From the IMG/VR virus record IMGVR_UViG_2537561618_000014: a stretch of DNA of 9,493 nt. One strand, 5' to 3'. The notes below the pieces were generated by a model. The model had not been told where the DNA came from and ran no database searches. It worked only from the letters and a program-made list of their open reading frames with translations. A program made the translations under genes and the position numbers. This DNA is from a virus. Its lineage: Duplodnaviria > Heunggongvirae > Uroviricota > Caudoviricetes. Of this stretch, positions 744 to 8,969 are shown in pieces. Each line of letters begins with the position of its first letter. Position 1 is the stretch's first letter.

Positions 744-1645
744 TGAGGTGTACTGGCAATAGCGGACACTACCATTTGTCTTTTTTTAAGCAGCCATCTG
801 ATGATATTTTTCCCTGAAGGCTGCCGGGGAGATATTCCCCAGACGAGAGTGACGACGCTGACGATTGTAGAAAATCTCAATGTATTCCCGTATTACTGAG
901 ATGGCTTCATCCCGGTTATTAAAACGATAGTGGCTCAGGCTCTCATTTTTCAGCGTTCCCCAGAAGCTTTCCATCGGAGCGTTGTCGTAACAGTTACCTT
1001 TACGCGACATTGATGTTTTCAGACCAAACTGCTCCTGTATGACCCGGTAATCGTATGCGCAGTACTGTGAACCTCGATCAGAGTGGTGGATTAGCCCGGC
1101 AGGTGGGCGCTGGCTCCTGAGCGCCATAAACAGGGCTTTACCTGTCAGCTCTTTTGTCATGCGCTCTCCCATGGCGTAGCCGACAATTTCGCACGTATAA
1201 ACATCTTTGATGCCAGCGAGGTACAACCATCCCTCCTGTGTGGCAACATACGTCAGGTCCGCCACCCAGACCTGATTTGGTGCTGTAGGAGCGAACGTCT
1301 GGTTCAGCAGATTTGGCGCAACTGGCAGATTGTGGTTCGGGTTCGTAGTCGCTCTGAACTTGCGTTTCTGCTTACAGCGTAGCCTCAGCTCCTTACGAAG
1401 ACGTGCCAGTCGGTCACGACCAACGATGATGCCATTCTCTGCCAGCTCCGTCTGGAGCCGCCGGGTTCCATATGTTTCGCGAGTGCGGATATGTGCCACC
1501 TTAATCTCCAGTTTTAGCCGCTCATCACTTTGTTTTCTGTCTGAGGGTTCATGCTGTACCCAGTTGTAATAACCGCTCCTGGATACACCAAATACCTGAC
1601 ACATCGCTTCAATGGGAAATTGTTGTCGCCATTGTTCGATTAACG
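744..1645 (-). mobile_element. IS600 (IS3 family), truncated copy: right end plus orfB retained; orfA and left inverted repeat replaced by IS1
   Basis: Starts with the terminal repeat TGAGGTGTACTGGCAATAGCGGACACT at 744, the same sequence that starts the complete copy at 7770. Near-identical to 7770-8672 apart from a few substitutions and one indel. Homology stops at 1645 where IS1 begins. Confidence 0.85.
786..1604 (-). CDS. IS600 OrfB transposase catalytic region, orphaned (no orfA upstream)
   Basis: Track ORF 786-1820; residues from MCQVFGVSRSGYYNW onward match the second copy's OrfB (7813-8631) almost exactly. The first ~72 residues of the track ORF are read-through into IS1 and are not real. 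Without orfA and the frameshift site it is unlikely to make a functional OrfAB transposase. Confidence 0.85.
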   Translation of the reverse strand: MCQVFGVSRSGYYNWVQHEPSDRKQSDERLKLEIKVAHIRTRETYGTRRLQTELAENGIIVGRDRLARLRKELRLRCKQKRKFRATTNPNHNLPVAPNLLNQTFAPTAPNQVWVADLTYVATQEGWLYLAGIKDVYTCEIVGYAMGERMTKELTGKALFMALRSQRPPAGLIHHSDRGSQYCAYDYRVIQEQFGLKTSMSRKGNCYDNAPMESFWGTLKNESLSHYRFNNRDEAISVIREYIEIFYNRQRRHSRLGNISPAAFREKYHQMAA

Positions 1646-1700
1646 GGTAATGCTGCCAACTTACTGATTTAGTGTATGATGGTGATTTTAAGGTGCTTGC

Positions 1701-1976
1701 GTGGCTTCCATTTCCATCAGATGTCCTTCCTGCTCCGCTACTGAAGGCGTGGTGCGTAACGGCAAAAGCACTGCCGGACATCAGCGCTATCTCTGCTCTC
1801 ATTGCCGTAAAACATGGCAACTACAGTTCACTTACACCGCCTCTCAGCCCGGTACGCACCAGAAAATCATTGATATGGCCATGAATGGCGTCAGATGTCG
1901 CGCCAGTGCACGCATTATGGGCGTTGGCCTCAACACGGTTTTACGTCACTTAAAAAACTCAGGCCGCAGTCGGTAA
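1701..1976 (+). CDS. insA: IS1 InsA (transposition inhibitor / N-terminal part of the InsAB' transposase)
   Basis: 91-aa [38 protein letters not shown]..., the IS1 InsA family with zinc-finger-like cysteines. Confidence 0.9.
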
Positions 1977-2398
1977 CCTCGCGCATACAACCGGGCAGTG
2001 ATGTGATTGTCTGCGCTGAAATGGACGAACATTGGGGCTACGTCGGTGCTAAATCACGTCAGCGCTGGCTGTTTTACGCGTATGACAGGATACGGAGGAC
2101 GGTTGTGGCGCACGTCTTCGGGGAACGCACTCTGGCCACACTGGAGCGTCTTCTGAGCCTGCTGTCGGCCTTTGAGGTCGTGGTATGGATGACGGATGGC
2201 TGGCCGCTGTATGAATCACGCCTGAAGGGAAAGCTACACGTTATCAGCAAGCGTTACACTCAGCGCATTGAGCGACATAATCTGAATCTGAGACAACATC
2301 TGGCAAGGCTGGGACGGAAGTCACTGTCGTTCTCAAAATCGGTGGAGCTGCATGACAAGGTCATCGGGCATTATCTGAACATAAAACACTATCAGTAA
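1895..2398 (+). CDS. insB: IS1 InsB frame (expressed as InsAB' by -1 frameshift)
   Basis: 167-aa ORF in the -1 frame relative to insA and overlapping its 3' end; the standard IS1 arrangement. Confidence 0.85.
1952..1958 (+). other. IS1 -1 frameshift heptamer A AAA AAC
   Basis: AAAAAAC at 1952-1958, with AAA and AAC as zero-frame insA codons (...LKN...). This is the known IS1 slippery motif. Confidence 0.6.
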
Positions 2399-2458
2399 GT
2401 TGGAGTCATTACCAAGAAAGAGAAGGTAAAGAAGGTAAGTCCATACTGTCTCCACTAT

Positions 2459-2482
2459 AAAAAAACCGCCAATTTCTGGCGG
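2459..2482 (-). terminator. Rho-independent terminator (minus strand) of the exported-protein gene
   Basis: Stem CCGCCA / TGGCGG (2466-2471 / 2477-2482) with a 5-nt loop, followed on the minus strand by a T7 run (complement of the A-run at 2459-2465). It lies 9 bp past the stop codon at 2491. Confidence 0.65.
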
Positions 2483-2490
2483 CTTATATA

Positions 2491-2973
2491 TTAATCATCA
2501 TTAATATCTTTCATATTCAATTTGCAATTTTCGTAGGTCACTCCCGACTCGCCATTAACATTAACTCCAGCTCTGATATTCCCGTTTTCTTTTACATCTA
2601 CAAAAAACTGGCCTCTTGGCATCTTGAACGCAAATGTAAAACCAACAGTATCTGAATCAAAATCATCATCTTTATATATTGGGATCAAAAATGTCATCGT
2701 CGCTGGTGATGCATTGTTTGCAAAATCAAATACACCTATACTTTTGCCGAATTCATAAGAAGCTTTTCTCAATATAATCGCACCGCTGGCAGAAGGGGAT
2801 GGGCACGATATCCTCAGTTGTCTGAATCCATCTGTATCCAAGTCAACGTCATTATCTGCAGATGTTTTAACGTTACTAATAAATCGTGAAACAATCTCCT
2901 CATTTGTTAGTATTTTCGCCTGAGCACAGCAAGAGGTTAATATTGCAACCGTCATTAAAAATGGCTTTATCAC
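2491..2973 (-). CDS. Hypothetical exported protein or lipoprotein (160 aa), AT-rich, function unknown
   Basis: Track ORF with a GTG start at 2973 preceded by GGAG at 8-nt spacing. N-terminus MIKPFLMTVAILTSCCAQA has a basic residue, a hydrophobic core, a lipobox-like LTSC and an AQA signal-peptidase motif. Sampled 60-nt stretches are about 30-33% G+C by hand count, against about 60% in a sampled stretch of the adjacent tape measure gene. Own terminator downstream. Confidence 0.7.
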   Translation of the reverse strand: MIKPFLMTVAILTSCCAQAKILTNEEIVSRFISNVKTSADNDVDLDTDGFRQLRISCPSPSASGAIILRKASYEFGKSIGVFDFANNASPATMTFLIPIYKDDDFDSDTVGFTFAFKMPRGQFFVDVKENGNIRAGVNVNGESGVTYENCKLNMKDINDD

Positions 2974-3040
2974 AAAACAAACTCCATTGTTAGCATGTTA
3001 CGCGATAATTTTGCCTCATCTTTCACCACAAAAAAAGAAC

Positions 3041-4990
3041 TCACCTTTTAAATGGAGAATACCCAACATCATGGGTGATTTTCATAAAGGGATCGCCTGT
3101 TTTCGGCAAATCGATAACGCGCATTCCAGGCGGCGCGTTGTCAAACGTCACCTTAAGTTCGCTGCGGGTTGCCGGTGAAGATGCAAGGCTTAACAGCTGA
3201 TTCCTTTCCAGTGATACATTCGGGGTGTAGCGTTTATCGGGAGATAAATACCCATCACCACGTGGCATCTGCCATCCGGTCATGTCATAGACAAAATCAT
3301 GGAACTGTTTGCCCCACTCGTCGAACTTATCATTCAGACCAAATCCACTGTTCAGTGCATCAGCCACAAAATTTTTAACAAGCCAGGGATGTTCTTTTTC
3401 AAACTCCTGCGCCATCATGCCCAGTTCAAGCAATCCACCAATCAGACTGATCTTTCCGAGGCCCTTTAATTTCAGCCCTGTTTTTCCTGCCGCCGTTGTC
3501 CATTGATTCTGGGCGACTGTTGCCGCACGAATACTTGCCACCGCCTTCACACCAATATACAGGGCAGAAACCGTTGCTATTGTTTTTACTGCCTGTTCCC
3601 ATCCCCCCATTGCTCTGACAACCTGATCAACCTCCTGCCAGACTTTTTTCACAACCGGACCGACCGTTTCCCAGTTATCAATTATGAGATATGCACCACC
3701 GACGAGAAGCGCAATTAATCCCTTTGCCGGCGTCATATTCATCACGCTACCCATGATTTTTGTTATGCGTGTCAATGTGCCAATCGCCACGCCCATCGTC
3801 AGTAATGCCGCACCAGTTTTCGCGATGGTTTTTACGACCTCAGGATTTTCTCTGACAAACGTGCGCACTTCTTCCAGAAAAGGCTTCATCTCTTTTATGC
3901 CTTCATTGAGTGAAGGCAGGAAGGTTTCCCCCAGCGTGGAAGAAATCGCATTGATCTGGTTCTGCAGCAGCAACAACTGATTTTCTGTCGTCGCGGCACG
4001 GGCGGCATATTCTTTCTGCATTGAGCCGCCATACTGCTGCGCATCCGCCACACGATTAAAGTTGGTTCGCAACAAATCCAGATTCGTGAGCAGCGGCGCA
4101 ATGGCCCCCAGGGATTCCTTCCCGAACAGCGCTTTCAGCACAGCAGCCTGTTTTTCTTTCGGCACTTTTGCCAGAGAATCCAGTACGTGCAGCATGGCCC
4201 CGCGGGCGTCTTTCTGCATATCCGCCGCCAGTTTTTTCGGGCTAATGCGCAACGAGCGGAGCACTTTTTTCTGCGATTTGGTGGCAGAATCCCTCGCTGT
4301 CAGCGACAACATAAAATTCTTTATCCCCGTCGCAGCAATTTCTGACTCCACCCCCATTCCGGCAATGGTTGCCCCCATTGCGGCAATCTCTCCGGAGGCC
4401 ACACCCGCAACACTGCCTAAAGGGCCAATACGGGTCACAACATCAGAAATCTTTTTCGCACTTGCAGGACCGGTATTGCCAAGATAGTTAATCTTATCCG
4501 CAAGCCCTGCCACCTCTCCCTGTGTCAGTTTAAAGGCAGTGCGCCACTGCGCCATCATCTGACCGGATTCTTCTGCCGTGGTGTCAAAGGCCACGCCCAT
4601 CTTCACGGCATCGTCAGTAAACTGCATCAGCTCGTCACGGGCGATACCAGCCTGACCACCCGCCGCCACAATTTCGGCGATACCTTCCGCCGACATGGGC
4701 AGTTCTGTTGACAGGTCGCGCACCTGCTCCGTCATTGCCTTAAACGCTTCCGGCGTATCCAGACCATCCACCACTTTCCGGACATCCGCCATTTTTGATT
4801 CAAGGGCAATGGCAGATTTGACCGGGAGCGCCAGCGCCCCCAGTACTGCGGTTCCGGCACCCGCTGCGCCCAGTGACAGGCTGGCAAACTCCTTTTTAAA
4901 ACCTTTCAGCTGGCGCTGCATTCCCTTCAGCGGTGCCGATACCTTATCCACGGCAGTGATGATCGCCTTCAGCTGAAAACTGTCAGCCAT
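3041..4990 (-). CDS. Phage tail tape measure protein
   Basis: 649-aa ORF, Ala/Gly/Leu-rich with predicted helical stretches and hydrophobic segments, positioned immediately after the tail chaperone gene whose frameshift extension ends overlapping this ATG (ATGGCTGA). Confidence 0.85.
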   Translation of the reverse strand: MADSFQLKAIITAVDKVSAPLKGMQRQLKGFKKEFASLSLGAAGAGTAVLGALALPVKSAIALESKMADVRKVVDGLDTPEAFKAMTEQVRDLSTELPMSAEGIAEIVAAGGQAGIARDELMQFTDDAVKMGVAFDTTAEESGQMMAQWRTAFKLTQGEVAGLADKINYLGNTGPASAKKISDVVTRIGPLGSVAGVASGEIAAMGATIAGMGVESEIAATGIKNFMLSLTARDSATKSQKKVLRSLRISPKKLAADMQKDARGAMLHVLDSLAKVPKEKQAAVLKALFGKESLGAIAPLLTNLDLLRTNFNRVADAQQYGGSMQKEYAARAATTENQLLLLQNQINAISSTLGETFLPSLNEGIKEMKPFLEEVRTFVRENPEVVKTIAKTGAALLTMGVAIGTLTRITKIMGSVMNMTPAKGLIALLVGGAYLIIDNWETVGPVVKKVWQEVDQVVRAMGGWEQAVKTIATVSALYIGVKAVASIRAATVAQNQWTTAAGKTGLKLKGLGKISLIGGLLELGMMAQEFEKEHPWLVKNFVADALNSGFGLNDKFDEWGKQFHDFVYDMTGWQMPRGDGYLSPDKRYTPNVSLERNQLLSLASSPATRSELKVTFDNAPPGMRVIDLPKTGDPFMKITHDVGYSPFKR

Positions 4991-5410
4991 GCTTCATCTC
5001 CTCGTTAATGCGGACGGCCTCGGCTTCCAGTTCTGTAAACTGCGAAACAGCCACCCGTCGCAGCTCCAGTGGATTCAGTTTCCAGAACCAGGCAACATTG
5101 TAGAGTCGTTTCCGGAGGTGCTTCCCGTCTCCGACTGGGTAAAAAAACGCAGGATCTGCATGCTGGTCTTAAAAATATCCAGTTTTGCCATCTGCGCCGC
5201 CGATGAACACGGGATCCCCGCCAGCAACGGGATATATTTCAGTGCCACCTGGCTGTCCAGTTTAATACTGCCTTCACCGGAAATAATGAAAGGAAAACCC
5301 AGCGCCTCGATTTCGTCATACGTGGGCTCGCGCAACTCCAGCACATGCAGCATTTCGTTATGCGCTGTCACCGGTTTTTTTAAAACTATTTCTGTAACGT
5401 TCATTGCCAT
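4983..5410 (-). CDS. Predicted -1 frameshift fusion of the tail assembly chaperone (E+E'-like / G-T-like product)
   Basis: After a -1 shift at the T7 run, the frame reads ...RFF YPVGDGKHLRKRLYNVAWFWKLNPLELRRVAVSQFTELEAEAVRINEEMKHG* and stops at TGA 4985-4983, overlapping the tape measure ATG (4990-4988). Confidence 0.55.
5075..5410 (-). CDS. Phage tail assembly chaperone (P2 gpE / lambda gpG analogue), zero-frame product
   Basis: 111-aa ORF between the tube and tape measure genes. Its ATG overlaps the tube stop (TAATGG) and is preceded by GGAGGG. It contains an in-frame T7 slippery run near its 3' end. Confidence 0.8.
   Translation of the reverse strand: MAMNVTEIVLKKPVTAHNEMLHVLELREPTYDEIEALGFPFIISGEGSIKLDSQVALKYIPLLAGIPCSSAAQMAKLDIFKTSMQILRFFTQSETGSTSGNDSTMLPGSGN
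5141..5147 (-). other. Slippery heptamer T TTT TTT for programmed -1 ribosomal frameshifting in the tail chaperone gene
   Basis: Plus-strand A7 at 5141-5147 is T7 on the coding strand, in phase X XXY YYZ with zero-frame codons TTT TTT (F89 F90). Confidence 0.55.
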
Positions 5411-7428: not shown

Positions 7429-7769
7429 TTAATTCTGAGGGAAACGCATTTCCAGATGGTGCTCAATGTCACCATCCGGGCCAGTACCAGGATCGATGTA
7501 ATCCACATCAATACTCAGCAGGGATAAATCCGGCAGGGCATTCACGTCCTCTGCCTGTCGCGTGTCTTCTTCCGTGATTTCATACTTCGCCGTAAAATCA
7601 AACTGGTAATACAGTTCGTAACGGTTCAGATCCAGCAGGGTGCCACCGACATAAACAATCTCGCCCCCTTGCGGGTCCGGCATCCATCCAAGCAGGGCTT
7701 TCCAGAGTTCTCTCCGGACATCATGAACGGCGTCATAGGCTGCCCACTGCCCTTTTTCATCACGCTCAT
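7429..7769 (-). CDS. Phage structural or morphogenesis gene upstream of the sheath (possible neck / tail-completion protein), 5'-truncated by IS600
   Basis: Track ORF 7429-7785; the first five codons lie inside the IS600 terminus, so the true N-terminus is missing. About 113 C-terminal codons remain (NERDEKGQWAAYDAVHDV...EMRFPQN*). Function inferred from position only. Confidence 0.55.
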
Positions 7770-7812
7770 TGAGGTGTACTGGCAATAGCGGACACTACCA
7801 TTTATTCTTTTT

Positions 7813-8631
7813 TTAAGCAGCCATCTGATGATATTTTTCCCTGAAGGCTGCCGGGGAGATATTCCCCAGACGAGAGTGACGACGCTGACGATTGTAGAAA
7901 ATCTCAATGTATTCCCGTATTACTGAGATGGCTTCATCCCGGTTATTAAAACGATAGTGGCTCAGGCTCTCATTTTTCAGCGTTCCCCAGAAGCTTTCCA
8001 TCGGAGCGTTGTCGTAACAGTTACCTTTACGCGACATTGATGTTTTCAGACCAGACTGCTCCTGTATGACCCGGTAATCGTATGCGCAGTACTGTGAACC
8101 TCGATCAGAGTGGTGGATTAGCCCGGCAGGTGGGCGCTGGCTCCTGAGCGCCATAAACAGGGCTTTACCTGTCAGCTCTTTTGTCATGCGCTCTCCCATG
8201 GCGTAGCCGACAATTTCGCACGTATAAACATCTTTGATGCCAGCGAGGTACAACCATCCCTCCTGTGTGGCAACATACGTCAGGTCCGCCACCCAGACCT
8301 GATTTGGTGCTGTAGGAGCGAACGTCTGGTTCAGCAGATTTGGCACAACTGGCAGATTGTGGTTCGGGTTCGTAGTCGCTCTGAACTTGCGTTTCTGCTT
8401 ACAGCGTAGCCTCAGCTCCTTACGAAGACATGCCAGTCGGTCACGACCAACGATGATGCCATTCTCTGCCAGCTCCGTCTGGAGCCGCCGGGTTCCATAT
8501 GTTTCGCGAGTGCGGATATGTGCCACCTTAATCTCCAGTTTTAGCCGCTCATCACTTTGTTTTCTGTCTGAGGGTTCATGCTGTACCCAGTTGTAATAAC
8601 CGCTCCTGGATACACCAAATACCTGACACAT
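7813..8631 (-). CDS. IS600 OrfB (transposase DDE catalytic region; expressed as OrfAB fusion)
   Basis: Track ORF; the OrfB frame actually opens further upstream to the frameshift site near 8716. IS3-family OrfB with DDE-type integrase fold motifs (e.g. ...HSDRGSQYCAYDY...). Confidence 0.9.
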   Translation of the reverse strand: MCQVFGVSRSGYYNWVQHEPSDRKQSDERLKLEIKVAHIRTRETYGTRRLQTELAENGIIVGRDRLACLRKELRLRCKQKRKFRATTNPNHNLPVVPNLLNQTFAPTAPNQVWVADLTYVATQEGWLYLAGIKDVYTCEIVGYAMGERMTKELTGKALFMALRSQRPPAGLIHHSDRGSQYCAYDYRVIQEQSGLKTSMSRKGNCYDNAPMESFWGTLKNESLSHYRFNNRDEAISVIREYIEIFYNRQRRHSRLGNISPAAFREKYHQMAA

Positions 8632-8666
8632 CGCTTCAATGGGAAATTGTTGTCGCCATTGTTCGA

Positions 8667-8969
8667 TTAACGCGTATTTTTCAGCGACTCCTGTGCAAAA
8701 TACGCTGTTGCTTTTTTTAATATATCTCGCTCAAGGCGAGCTTCATTTAACGCCTTACGCAGTTGCAGAATTTCAGATTCCAGTTCAGCCACCGTGCGGG
8801 AACCAGGAGTACCGAGCCCTTTTCTGGCGGCGGTAACCCATTGTCCTAAAGTGCCTTCAGGAAGAGATAATCGGGAAGCGCCTTCACTGATCGAAAGTTG
8901 ATTTTCAAGAACCGTTCTGACAGCTTCGGCTTTGAACTCTTTAGAGTAACGTTGGGTTTTTCTGCTCAT
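8667..8969 (-). CDS. IS600 OrfA (helix-turn-helix / leucine-zipper DNA-binding component)
   Basis: 100-aa ORF MSRKTQRYSKEFKAEAVRTVLENQ...ERDILKKATAYFAQESLKNTR, matching IS600 OrfA as I recall it. Confidence 0.9.
   Translation of the reverse strand: MSRKTQRYSKEFKAEAVRTVLENQLSISEGASRLSLPEGTLGQWVTAARKGLGTPGSRTVAELESEILQLRKALNEARLERDILKKATAYFAQESLKNTR
8712..8718 (-). other. IS600 orfA-orfB -1 frameshift site (A AAA AAA G)
   Basis: Plus-strand T7 at 8712-8718 is A7 in orfA codons L-K-K. A -1 shift reads ...KKSNSVFCTGVAEKYALIEQWRQQFPIEAMCQVFGVSRSG..., joining into OrfB. Confidence 0.6.

Follow-up and report, generated by a model that had tools for sequence, protein, structure and literature searches.

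A low-G+C single-gene cassette beside the tape measure gene of Mu-type tail modules in Shigella and Escherichia coli prophages

What is a small AT-rich gene for a putative exported protein doing directly behind the tape measure gene of a contractile-tailed phage? The question is raised by the IMG/VR virus record IMGVR_UViG_2537561618_000014, a stretch of 9,493 nucleotides (nt) of Caudoviricetes DNA (referred to below as the window, meaning the whole stretch that was analysed), which carries on its minus strand an open reading frame (ORF) of 160 amino acids (aa) at 2491..2973, between the gene for the tail tape measure protein and what is left of the next tail gene, N. A first-pass annotation made from the sequence alone had described the ORF as an orphan gene for an exported protein or lipoprotein and as a candidate for a horizontally acquired cargo gene, or moron. 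We find that the ORF is part of a cassette that is optional, AT-rich and self-terminated and that re-supplies a ribosome-binding site for N. On balance, we consider it probable that the feature is a moron, i.e., an accessory cassette of one gene that a temperate phage carries in its late tail operon.

The cassette and its family

Alignment of filled sites (the window and the intact E. coli relative L001) with empty sites (L007 and L008) delimits the whole insertion as a cassette of ~605 nt at 2445..3049 (minus strand), which takes the place of ~23 nt. The cassette consists of the last two sense codons and the stop codon of the tape measure gene, a leader of 67 nt, the ORF, a terminator and, at its 3' end, a new Shine-Dalgarno sequence GGAG for the N gene (2453-2450, minus strand); in prophages without the cassette, 15 nt separate the tape measure stop from the N start. 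The ORF is present in 11 of 5,426 complete E. coli genomes, every time between the tape measure gene and N, and a search with the ORF and ~550 nt of each flank as the query returned at least 10 further prophages where the flanks are 96–97% identical and 583 nt are missing, as well as more with flanks that are 94–95% identical. Among 50,697 phage records the ORF was found in only one.

The Juhala/Hendrix definition of a moron comprises four criteria (PMC3594210). What we observe under them is extra DNA between genes that are adjacent in relatives, a base composition unlike that of the surrounding genes (36.9% versus 52–54% G+C) and a terminator belonging to the insertion; with respect to a promoter of its own that is active in the repressed prophage, a consensus scan of 2300-3300 gave no match. 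The description of the ORF as cargo is borne out in that filled and empty prophages of 96–97% identity differ by exactly this cassette, and it is further backed by the deviant G+C content, the terminator and the occurrence of relatives at unrelated mobile positions.

The G+C content of the ORF (36.9%, and 31% at third codon positions) compares with 52.1% in the tape measure gene, 53.8% in the sheath gene and an average of 52–54% in the adjacent tail genes (range 47–59%, and 55% at third codon positions). The lowest-G+C 483-nt stretch of the whole window is the ORF region (minimum 36.4%, starting at 2484), which lies 4.2 standard deviations under windows outside the region (z = -4.2); the AT-richness is real and not due to chance. 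The first-pass annotation had the direction of this contrast right and its size overstated, as it gave 30–33% for the ORF, a level reached only in windows of at most 100 nt, and about 60% for the neighbours. Nor can the low G+C content serve as a mark of recent acquisition. Recent foreign acquisition was ruled out as its explanation because copies at 40–74% identity, which occupy the same slot and have diverged in step with the tail module, are equally AT-rich, with 34–38% G+C versus 47–55% in their surroundings. Judged from these copies, the low G+C content of the ORF is a maintained property and not the fading mark of a transfer.

The reading frame, taken from the ORF list and its translation, begins with GTG (2973-2971) and ends with TAA (2493-2491), and its start codon is preceded, 8 nt 5' of the GTG, by the Shine-Dalgarno sequence GGAG (2985-2982), all on the minus strand, with the GTG and the GGAG as previously annotated. 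The Shine-Dalgarno sequence lies within the leader (2974..3040, minus strand), read from the sequence as the 67 nt from the tape measure stop codon to the GTG, so that the tape measure gene ends 67 nt 5' of the ORF; the leaders of diverged copies show no convincing alignment among them. The product, with the N-terminus MIKPFLMTVAILTSCCAQAKIL..., is RefSeq WP_000594909.1, a 'hypothetical protein', and the RefSeq annotation of a 100% identical E. coli prophage has the same ORF coordinates. The GTG start is backed by alignment, in which K3 and F5 match homologues beginning MKKMF.

The clean intrinsic terminator that had been noted behind the ORF was recovered by a scan at 2459..2485 (minus strand), with a stem GCCGCCA / TGGCGGT followed by a run of T. 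The stem of 9–10 bp occupies 2485-2463 and the run consists of seven T; the predicted fold has -14 kcal/mol (z = -2.9 versus shuffles). Three diverged copies of the gene each end in a terminator of unrelated sequence; those of the Yersinia copy and of the clade at 40% identity are scan matches, and that of the clade at 50% was read by eye, the greedy stem extension having missed it. An Rfam search of the window gave no matches.

The label of orphan does not apply to the protein, which over its full length (residues 1-160 against positions 1-161 of the profile) matches PHROG 5586 (E=9.7e-89), a family that carries no function or annotation. An identical protein sequence occurs in 2,783 indexed blocks of a public assembly collection, which are mostly contigs of 5–10 kb bounded by insertion sequence (IS) elements and which come from Shigella and E. 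coli wherever the organism is named. Word-indexed and exhaustive hidden Markov model searches found homologues down to 24% identity: a copy with 74% identity in a prophage of Yersinia enterocolitica; a clade at 50% identity with 416 member sequences in E. coli and Salmonella, including the isolated phage vB_EcoM-720R4; a clade at ~40% identity; and remote members at 24–31% identity. Three weak partial matches in metagenome-assembled genomes of Firmicutes (L020-L022, ~50 residues, 32–36% identity), which came from a narrower alignment, were rejected as spurious, as they were not reproduced by tblastn at 1e-5.

The position of the gene is conserved along with its sequence. Of 28 IMG/VR contigs, 27 have it flanked by matches to the tape measure gene and to N, and in the 28th it is located directly before N with no tape measure match; the same slot is occupied in Escherichia phage vB_EcoM-720R4 and in the Yersinia prophage. 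Whether the gene always travels with this tail had been put forward as a check, and the slot beside the tape measure gene and N is indeed kept in these 27 contigs and in 11 of 11 complete E. coli genomes. Remote relatives are found in other company, one of them in a putative phage-plasmid, with IncFII repA on one side, a PemK/MazE pair on the other and parA and a cI-like repressor gene nearby, another (from Pantoea) in a similar region, and a further one after a tape measure gene and a HIRAN-domain gene. Among the relatives' loci examined we saw no chromosomal housekeeping context of the kind that the first-pass annotation had named as evidence against a cargo gene. In L006 (2387-2974), a relative with low G+C content, the HIRAN-domain gene separates the remote ORF homologue from the tape measure gene, and the arrangement suggests that the slot may hold more than one cargo gene.

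Comparison of protein identities indicates that the divergence of the ORF tracks that of the tail module. The identities of the sheath protein, tape measure protein, ORF product and N drop together, from 82/79/74/67% in Yersinia to 83/71/50/53% in the 720R4 clade and 79/53/40/51% in L050. The ratio of nonsynonymous to synonymous divergence (dN/dS) is 0.09–0.28 versus the Yersinia and 720R4 copies, with dS saturated, by which measure the ORF protein is shown to be under purifying selection. The gene is a long-standing but dispensable resident of its slot. The tape measure gene of the Yersinia prophage (L003 6589-7899) is without its first ~213 codons. L026 and L029 are mosaic, with a tape measure protein 75% identical to that of the window and an ORF product and N that are both 96% identical, a pattern that implies a recombination breakpoint within the tape measure gene or immediately upstream of it, with the ORF and N moving as a unit.

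Predicted export and fold of the product

The product of the ORF is very probably exported. By rule-based prediction, residues 1-19 (MIKPFLMTVAILTSCCAQA; 2917..2973, minus strand) form a signal peptide with a signal peptidase I site AQA/K, and the check found the features expected of such a substrate, namely K3 as the sole basic residue of the n-region, a hydrophobic core at 4-14 and small residues at -3 and -1. In nine full-length relatives an AxA/K or AxA/G site is aligned with AQA/K (residues 17-19/20), the individual sites being ALA/KD, VSA/KD, VFA/KK, ALA/KA, AMA/KA, SFA/KP, AIA/KD (twice) and ANA/GS, and all full-length relatives likewise combine a short n-region that is basic with a hydrophobic core. 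These features give good support to Sec export with cleavage most likely at AQA/K and a periplasmic location of the protein, whose mature form is predicted to be acidic, with 141 aa, ~15.5 kDa and a pI of 4.6; the acidic C-terminus recorded in the first-pass annotation reads ...KDINDD.

The same annotation had paired the signal peptide with a lipobox-like LTSC and suggested a lipoprotein. The motif is present as L12-T13-S14-C15 (2929..2940, minus strand), an alternative signal peptidase II site by pattern match, which, with Cys15 as its cysteine, fits both [LVI][ASTVI][GAS]C and a PROSITE-style lipoprotein pattern in a scripted test. The lipobox is confined to the Shigella/E. coli and Yersinia copies; no other clade has it. 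The signal peptide thus stands as a feature conserved throughout the family, whereas the case for a lipoprotein is weak, because the lipobox Cys is missing in every other clade and the AxA/K site is family-wide. Lipid anchoring via Cys15 in the Shigella/Yersinia clade is a serious possibility that nevertheless falls short of probable.

The four cysteines counted in the first reading are C15, C16, C57 and C150. The first two lie inside the signal peptide and are limited to the Shigella/E. coli and Yersinia copies. The other two are conserved in the family: Cys57 (codon at 2803..2805, minus strand) forms a nearly invariant column of alignment A2, and Cys150 (codon at 2524..2526, minus strand) is nearly invariant in A2 and invariant in alignments A1 and A4. 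An AlphaFold2 model built with ten close sequences had a predicted local distance difference test score (pLDDT) of 44.5, and one built with the 13-sequence alignment including remote members had a pLDDT of 85.6 and a predicted template modelling score (pTM) of 0.78. The latter model shows a helix at 24-41 followed by eight beta-strands, and the predicted fold is accordingly described as an N-terminal helix and an eight-stranded beta-barrel. In the model, Cys57 is located just after the first predicted strand (52-56) and Cys150 in the last (146-152), and a Cys57-Cys150 disulfide probably closes the barrel.

What the product might do

Our preference for the function is tentative and held with low confidence: an inhibitor acting in the envelope, most likely by superinfection exclusion at the periplasmic stage. 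The exported protein would work in the cell envelope without a partner, as a binder or an inhibitor, and it would protect the lysogen or the infected cell, most likely by interfering with the periplasmic stage of the entry of related contractile-tailed phages. The exclusion reading fits the locus because the gene is linked to the tail module, diverges in step with it and has a single-gene architecture. There is no conserved partner gene, the carriers are only temperate phages and phage-plasmids, and the gene does not correspond to any defence-system model in PADLOC-DB.

Two known exclusion proteins are instructive by analogy. The product of gene 15 of HK97, a tail-operon moron, causes exclusion in a manner dependent on the incoming phage's tail region (PMC3594210). 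Like gene 15, the ORF is a single-gene insertion in the tail operon beside the tape measure gene of a temperate enterobacterial phage, has a G+C content unlike that of its neighbours and its own terminator, and sends its product (in the present case by prediction) to the cell envelope. The two differ in that HK97 gp15 is a small inner-membrane protein related to YebO, made from a defined promoter, whereas the ORF has no detectable promoter and its product is predicted to be a cleaved, soluble or anchored beta-barrel of ~141 aa that is unrelated in sequence. The favoured mechanistic model is T4 Spackle (gp61.3), which is periplasmic and binds the tail-tip gp5 lysozyme of incoming related phages (PMC7677548). 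The ORF product would resemble it as a small Sec-exported periplasmic phage protein working alone, although Spackle comes from a lytic phage and is encoded by an early gene. It is not among the PDB sequence or fold matches listed for the ORF product. Spackle is a helical protein.

A more specific proposal, which we regard as doubtful, is that temperate Mu-tail phages use this family for self-exclusion in the periplasm and that such a class of proteins has so far escaped recognition. The beta-barrel would bind a part of the tail tip or hub (the N/gp43-type protein, the C-terminus of the tape measure protein or the spike) of incoming phages with the same type of tail and block DNA delivery, and the linkage to and co-divergence with the tail module would keep inhibitor and target matched. 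If this were true, the class would be to temperate phages what Spackle is to T4, and its fold class would be new to this task.

Several results weigh against our overall explanation of the cassette. The ORF protein has no match in Pfam, in NCBIfam or, at E<=1, in PADLOC, and 13 family members have none in Pfam at E<=10; a profile search of PDB sequences at E<=10 gave no matches, Foldseek, a check already proposed with the first reading, gave no match at E<=0.001 against PDB and BFVD, and nothing was found in the literature on the RefSeq accession and phage vB_EcoM-720R4. A consensus scan, which does not cover weak or non-canonical promoters, detected no sigma-70-like promoter in 2300-3300 of the window or 5' of the gene in three diverged copies, in each case with the 3' end of the tape measure gene included, and inspection of the leaders by hand revealed no convincing -35/-10 pair. 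Expression from the repressed prophage is therefore putative, and the ORF may be made only with the late tail genes. The occupation of one slot and the co-divergence could also mean a role in the phage's own cycle rather than in protection of the lysogen, and the signal peptide and the disulfide rest on sequence rules and conservation rather than on model coordinates. Finally, the gene is dispensable, because it is split by an IS1 element in one prophage and looks frameshifted in the Yersinia copy. In the former, the IMG/VR prophage L028 (4122-5378), the ORF is interrupted within codon 37 (after codon 36) by an IS1 variant that is 91% identical to the IS1 of the window and flanked by a 9-bp target duplication, CGTTAAAAC. 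In the latter (L003 7976-8003), the reading frame of the expected start ATG AAA AAA CCT is offset by one base from the rest of the ORF, which may reflect either a signal-peptide frameshift or a mistake in the assembly.

We consider it unlikely that the product is instead an outer-membrane lipoprotein that masks or inactivates a phage receptor in the manner of T5 Llp or the Cor proteins of phi80, HK022 and N15, made in the lysogen or late in infection and either excluding superinfecting phages or shielding progeny from debris. The precedents are those of Cor and Llp (PMC3594210, PMC9586334), envelope proteins that block the receptor FhuA, with which the Shigella-clade ORF shares the lipobox-like motif; L12-T13-S14-C15 fits a lipobox, has no Asp at +2 and is kept in the Shigella/E. 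coli variants and the Yersinia copy, and the late-operon position without a promoter of its own would suit late expression. However, the lipobox is not conserved in the family, its Cys being missing in the 50%, 40% and 24–31% clades, which have AxA/K instead, and a Cys at position 15 implies a very short signal peptide. The protein also has no sequence or fold match to Llp, Cor or any named family in PHROG, Pfam or BFVD.

A similarly low probability attaches to a fitness or virulence factor directed at the host, i.e., a periplasmic or anchored beta-barrel inhibitor or ligand binder that would aid enteric lysogens in the gut, for example a lysozyme or protease inhibitor acting like MliC/PliC or a small-molecule binder of the calycin type. 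The predicted product would parallel MliC/PliC proteins in being periplasmic or a lipoprotein depending on the clade, in its modelled 8-stranded barrel, in a putative conserved disulfide and in its acidity (PMC2267010). Membership of that family (COG3895, Pfam MliC) was ruled out by a profile test, since hhalign versus E. coli MliC gave 13.8% probability and aligned the signal peptide only, and since none of the 13 family members has a Pfam match at E<=10. The ORF product further differs from MliC/PliC in an extra N-terminal helix, in being ~50 residues longer and in being phage-borne rather than chromosomal.

A role confined to the lytic cycle, in which the gene would be expressed only with the late tail genes and would help lysis or egress or condition the periplasm rather than convert the lysogen, appears quite improbable. 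The failure to detect a promoter, the location within the late operon, in the same orientation and behind a good Shine-Dalgarno sequence, and the fact that the gene has stayed in its slot and diverged with the tail module all fit such a role. The gene is nevertheless missing in prophages of 96–97% identity and in other Mu-tail phages and occurs in a single record of the 50,697; its remote relatives lie among plasmid-prophage maintenance genes and not late genes; and a conserved terminator just 5' of N makes sense mainly if transcription must stop in some state. An o-spanin was set aside on judgement, considering the size of the protein and its location outside a lysis cassette.

That the ORF encodes a structural or assembly component of the tail or baseplate, or else is decaying and non-functional, is very improbable in spite of its position among tail genes and the degradation of the surrounding prophage by IS elements: a tail structural protein is rejected in view of the optional presence of the gene in near-identical prophages and of the predicted Sec signal peptide, which would be incompatible with virion assembly in the cytoplasm, and decay is disfavoured by the dN/dS values and by an ORF that is intact in the eight places shown of the 2,783 indexed blocks.

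The ORF is one of very many uncharacterised phage morons, with nothing unexpected for its class, and if its function were worked out, the list of prophage accessory proteins that act on the envelope would grow by one. Of some interest are its wide occurrence in Shigella assemblies, the existence of natural sites with and without the cassette, and a divergence that parallels that of a Mu-type tail module. With ~2,800 indexed blocks, from Shigella and E. coli wherever the organism is named, the gene could bear on the phage susceptibility or envelope biology of an important pathogen, and the filled and empty sites together with three diverged alleles make a clean system for studying the co-evolution of an accessory gene with a tail.

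Neighbouring genes and the eroded prophage

The tape measure gene (3041..4990, minus strand) encodes 649 aa and is identified by Pfam PhageMin_Tail (E=1.4e-44) and by the RefSeq name 'phage tail tape measure protein'. A gap of 84 nt separates its start from a tail assembly chaperone gene at 5075-5410 (Pfam Phage_TAC_7). On the other side of the ORF, what remains of a Mu-N/gp43-type 'DNA circularization' gene is its first 31 nt (2414..2444, minus strand; ATG at 2444-2442). The remnant matches the beginning of N in L001 letter for letter down to position 2414, beyond which the end of an IS1 element, GGTAATGACTCC..., begins. This IS1 copy (1642..2413, plus strand) was recognised by blastn to an IS1 variant and by InsA/InsB-type ORFs at 1701-2398, and its Pfam IS1 domains match the same gene in Shigella chromosomes.

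The intact arrangement can be seen in E. coli FDAARGOS_944, which contains a 100% identical stretch. There the same ATG opens a 463-aa 'DNA circularization protein' of the Mu N/gp43 type. Behind N comes a complete set of Mu-type baseplate and fibre genes, and upstream of the tail genes are head genes of the HK97 type. No baseplate genes follow the ORF in the window because IS1 deleted N past its first 31 nt along with everything downstream, and the region marked in the first-pass annotation begins at 2414 because IS1 ends at 2413. The statement that the ORF sits where baseplate genes would normally follow is correct only in part: in intact relatives it lies between the tape measure gene and the first gene on the baseplate side, N, and the absence of baseplate genes from the window stems from the deletion by IS1 (1642-2413).

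The remnant and its IS1 junction are found again in several Shigella chromosomes, adjoining an ipaH gene. The source was a temperate phage with an HK97-type head and a Mu-type contractile tail, and its prophage is now a remnant eroded by IS1 and IS600 and fixed in Shigella. Two IS600 copies were assigned from RefSeq names at the matching E. coli loci: one, without orfA, abuts IS1 at ~786-1640, and the other, at 7813-8969, abuts a tail-terminator gene (7429-7785) that is truncated and matches only positions 83-147 of the 150 in the Pfam model.

At the far end of the window, positions 88-644 contain a DUF4376 (tail-fibre-associated) gene and a 59-aa ORF that adjoin ipaH in Shigella chromosomes (L012-L017). 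The ipaH gene, which encodes a type III secretion system effector with leucine-rich repeat (LRR) and NEL parts, lies just beyond window position 1 in these chromosomes. The intact E. coli relative L001 (1544-3185) has a frameshifted ipaHe in the equivalent place, and the same prophage therefore carries two cargo genes.

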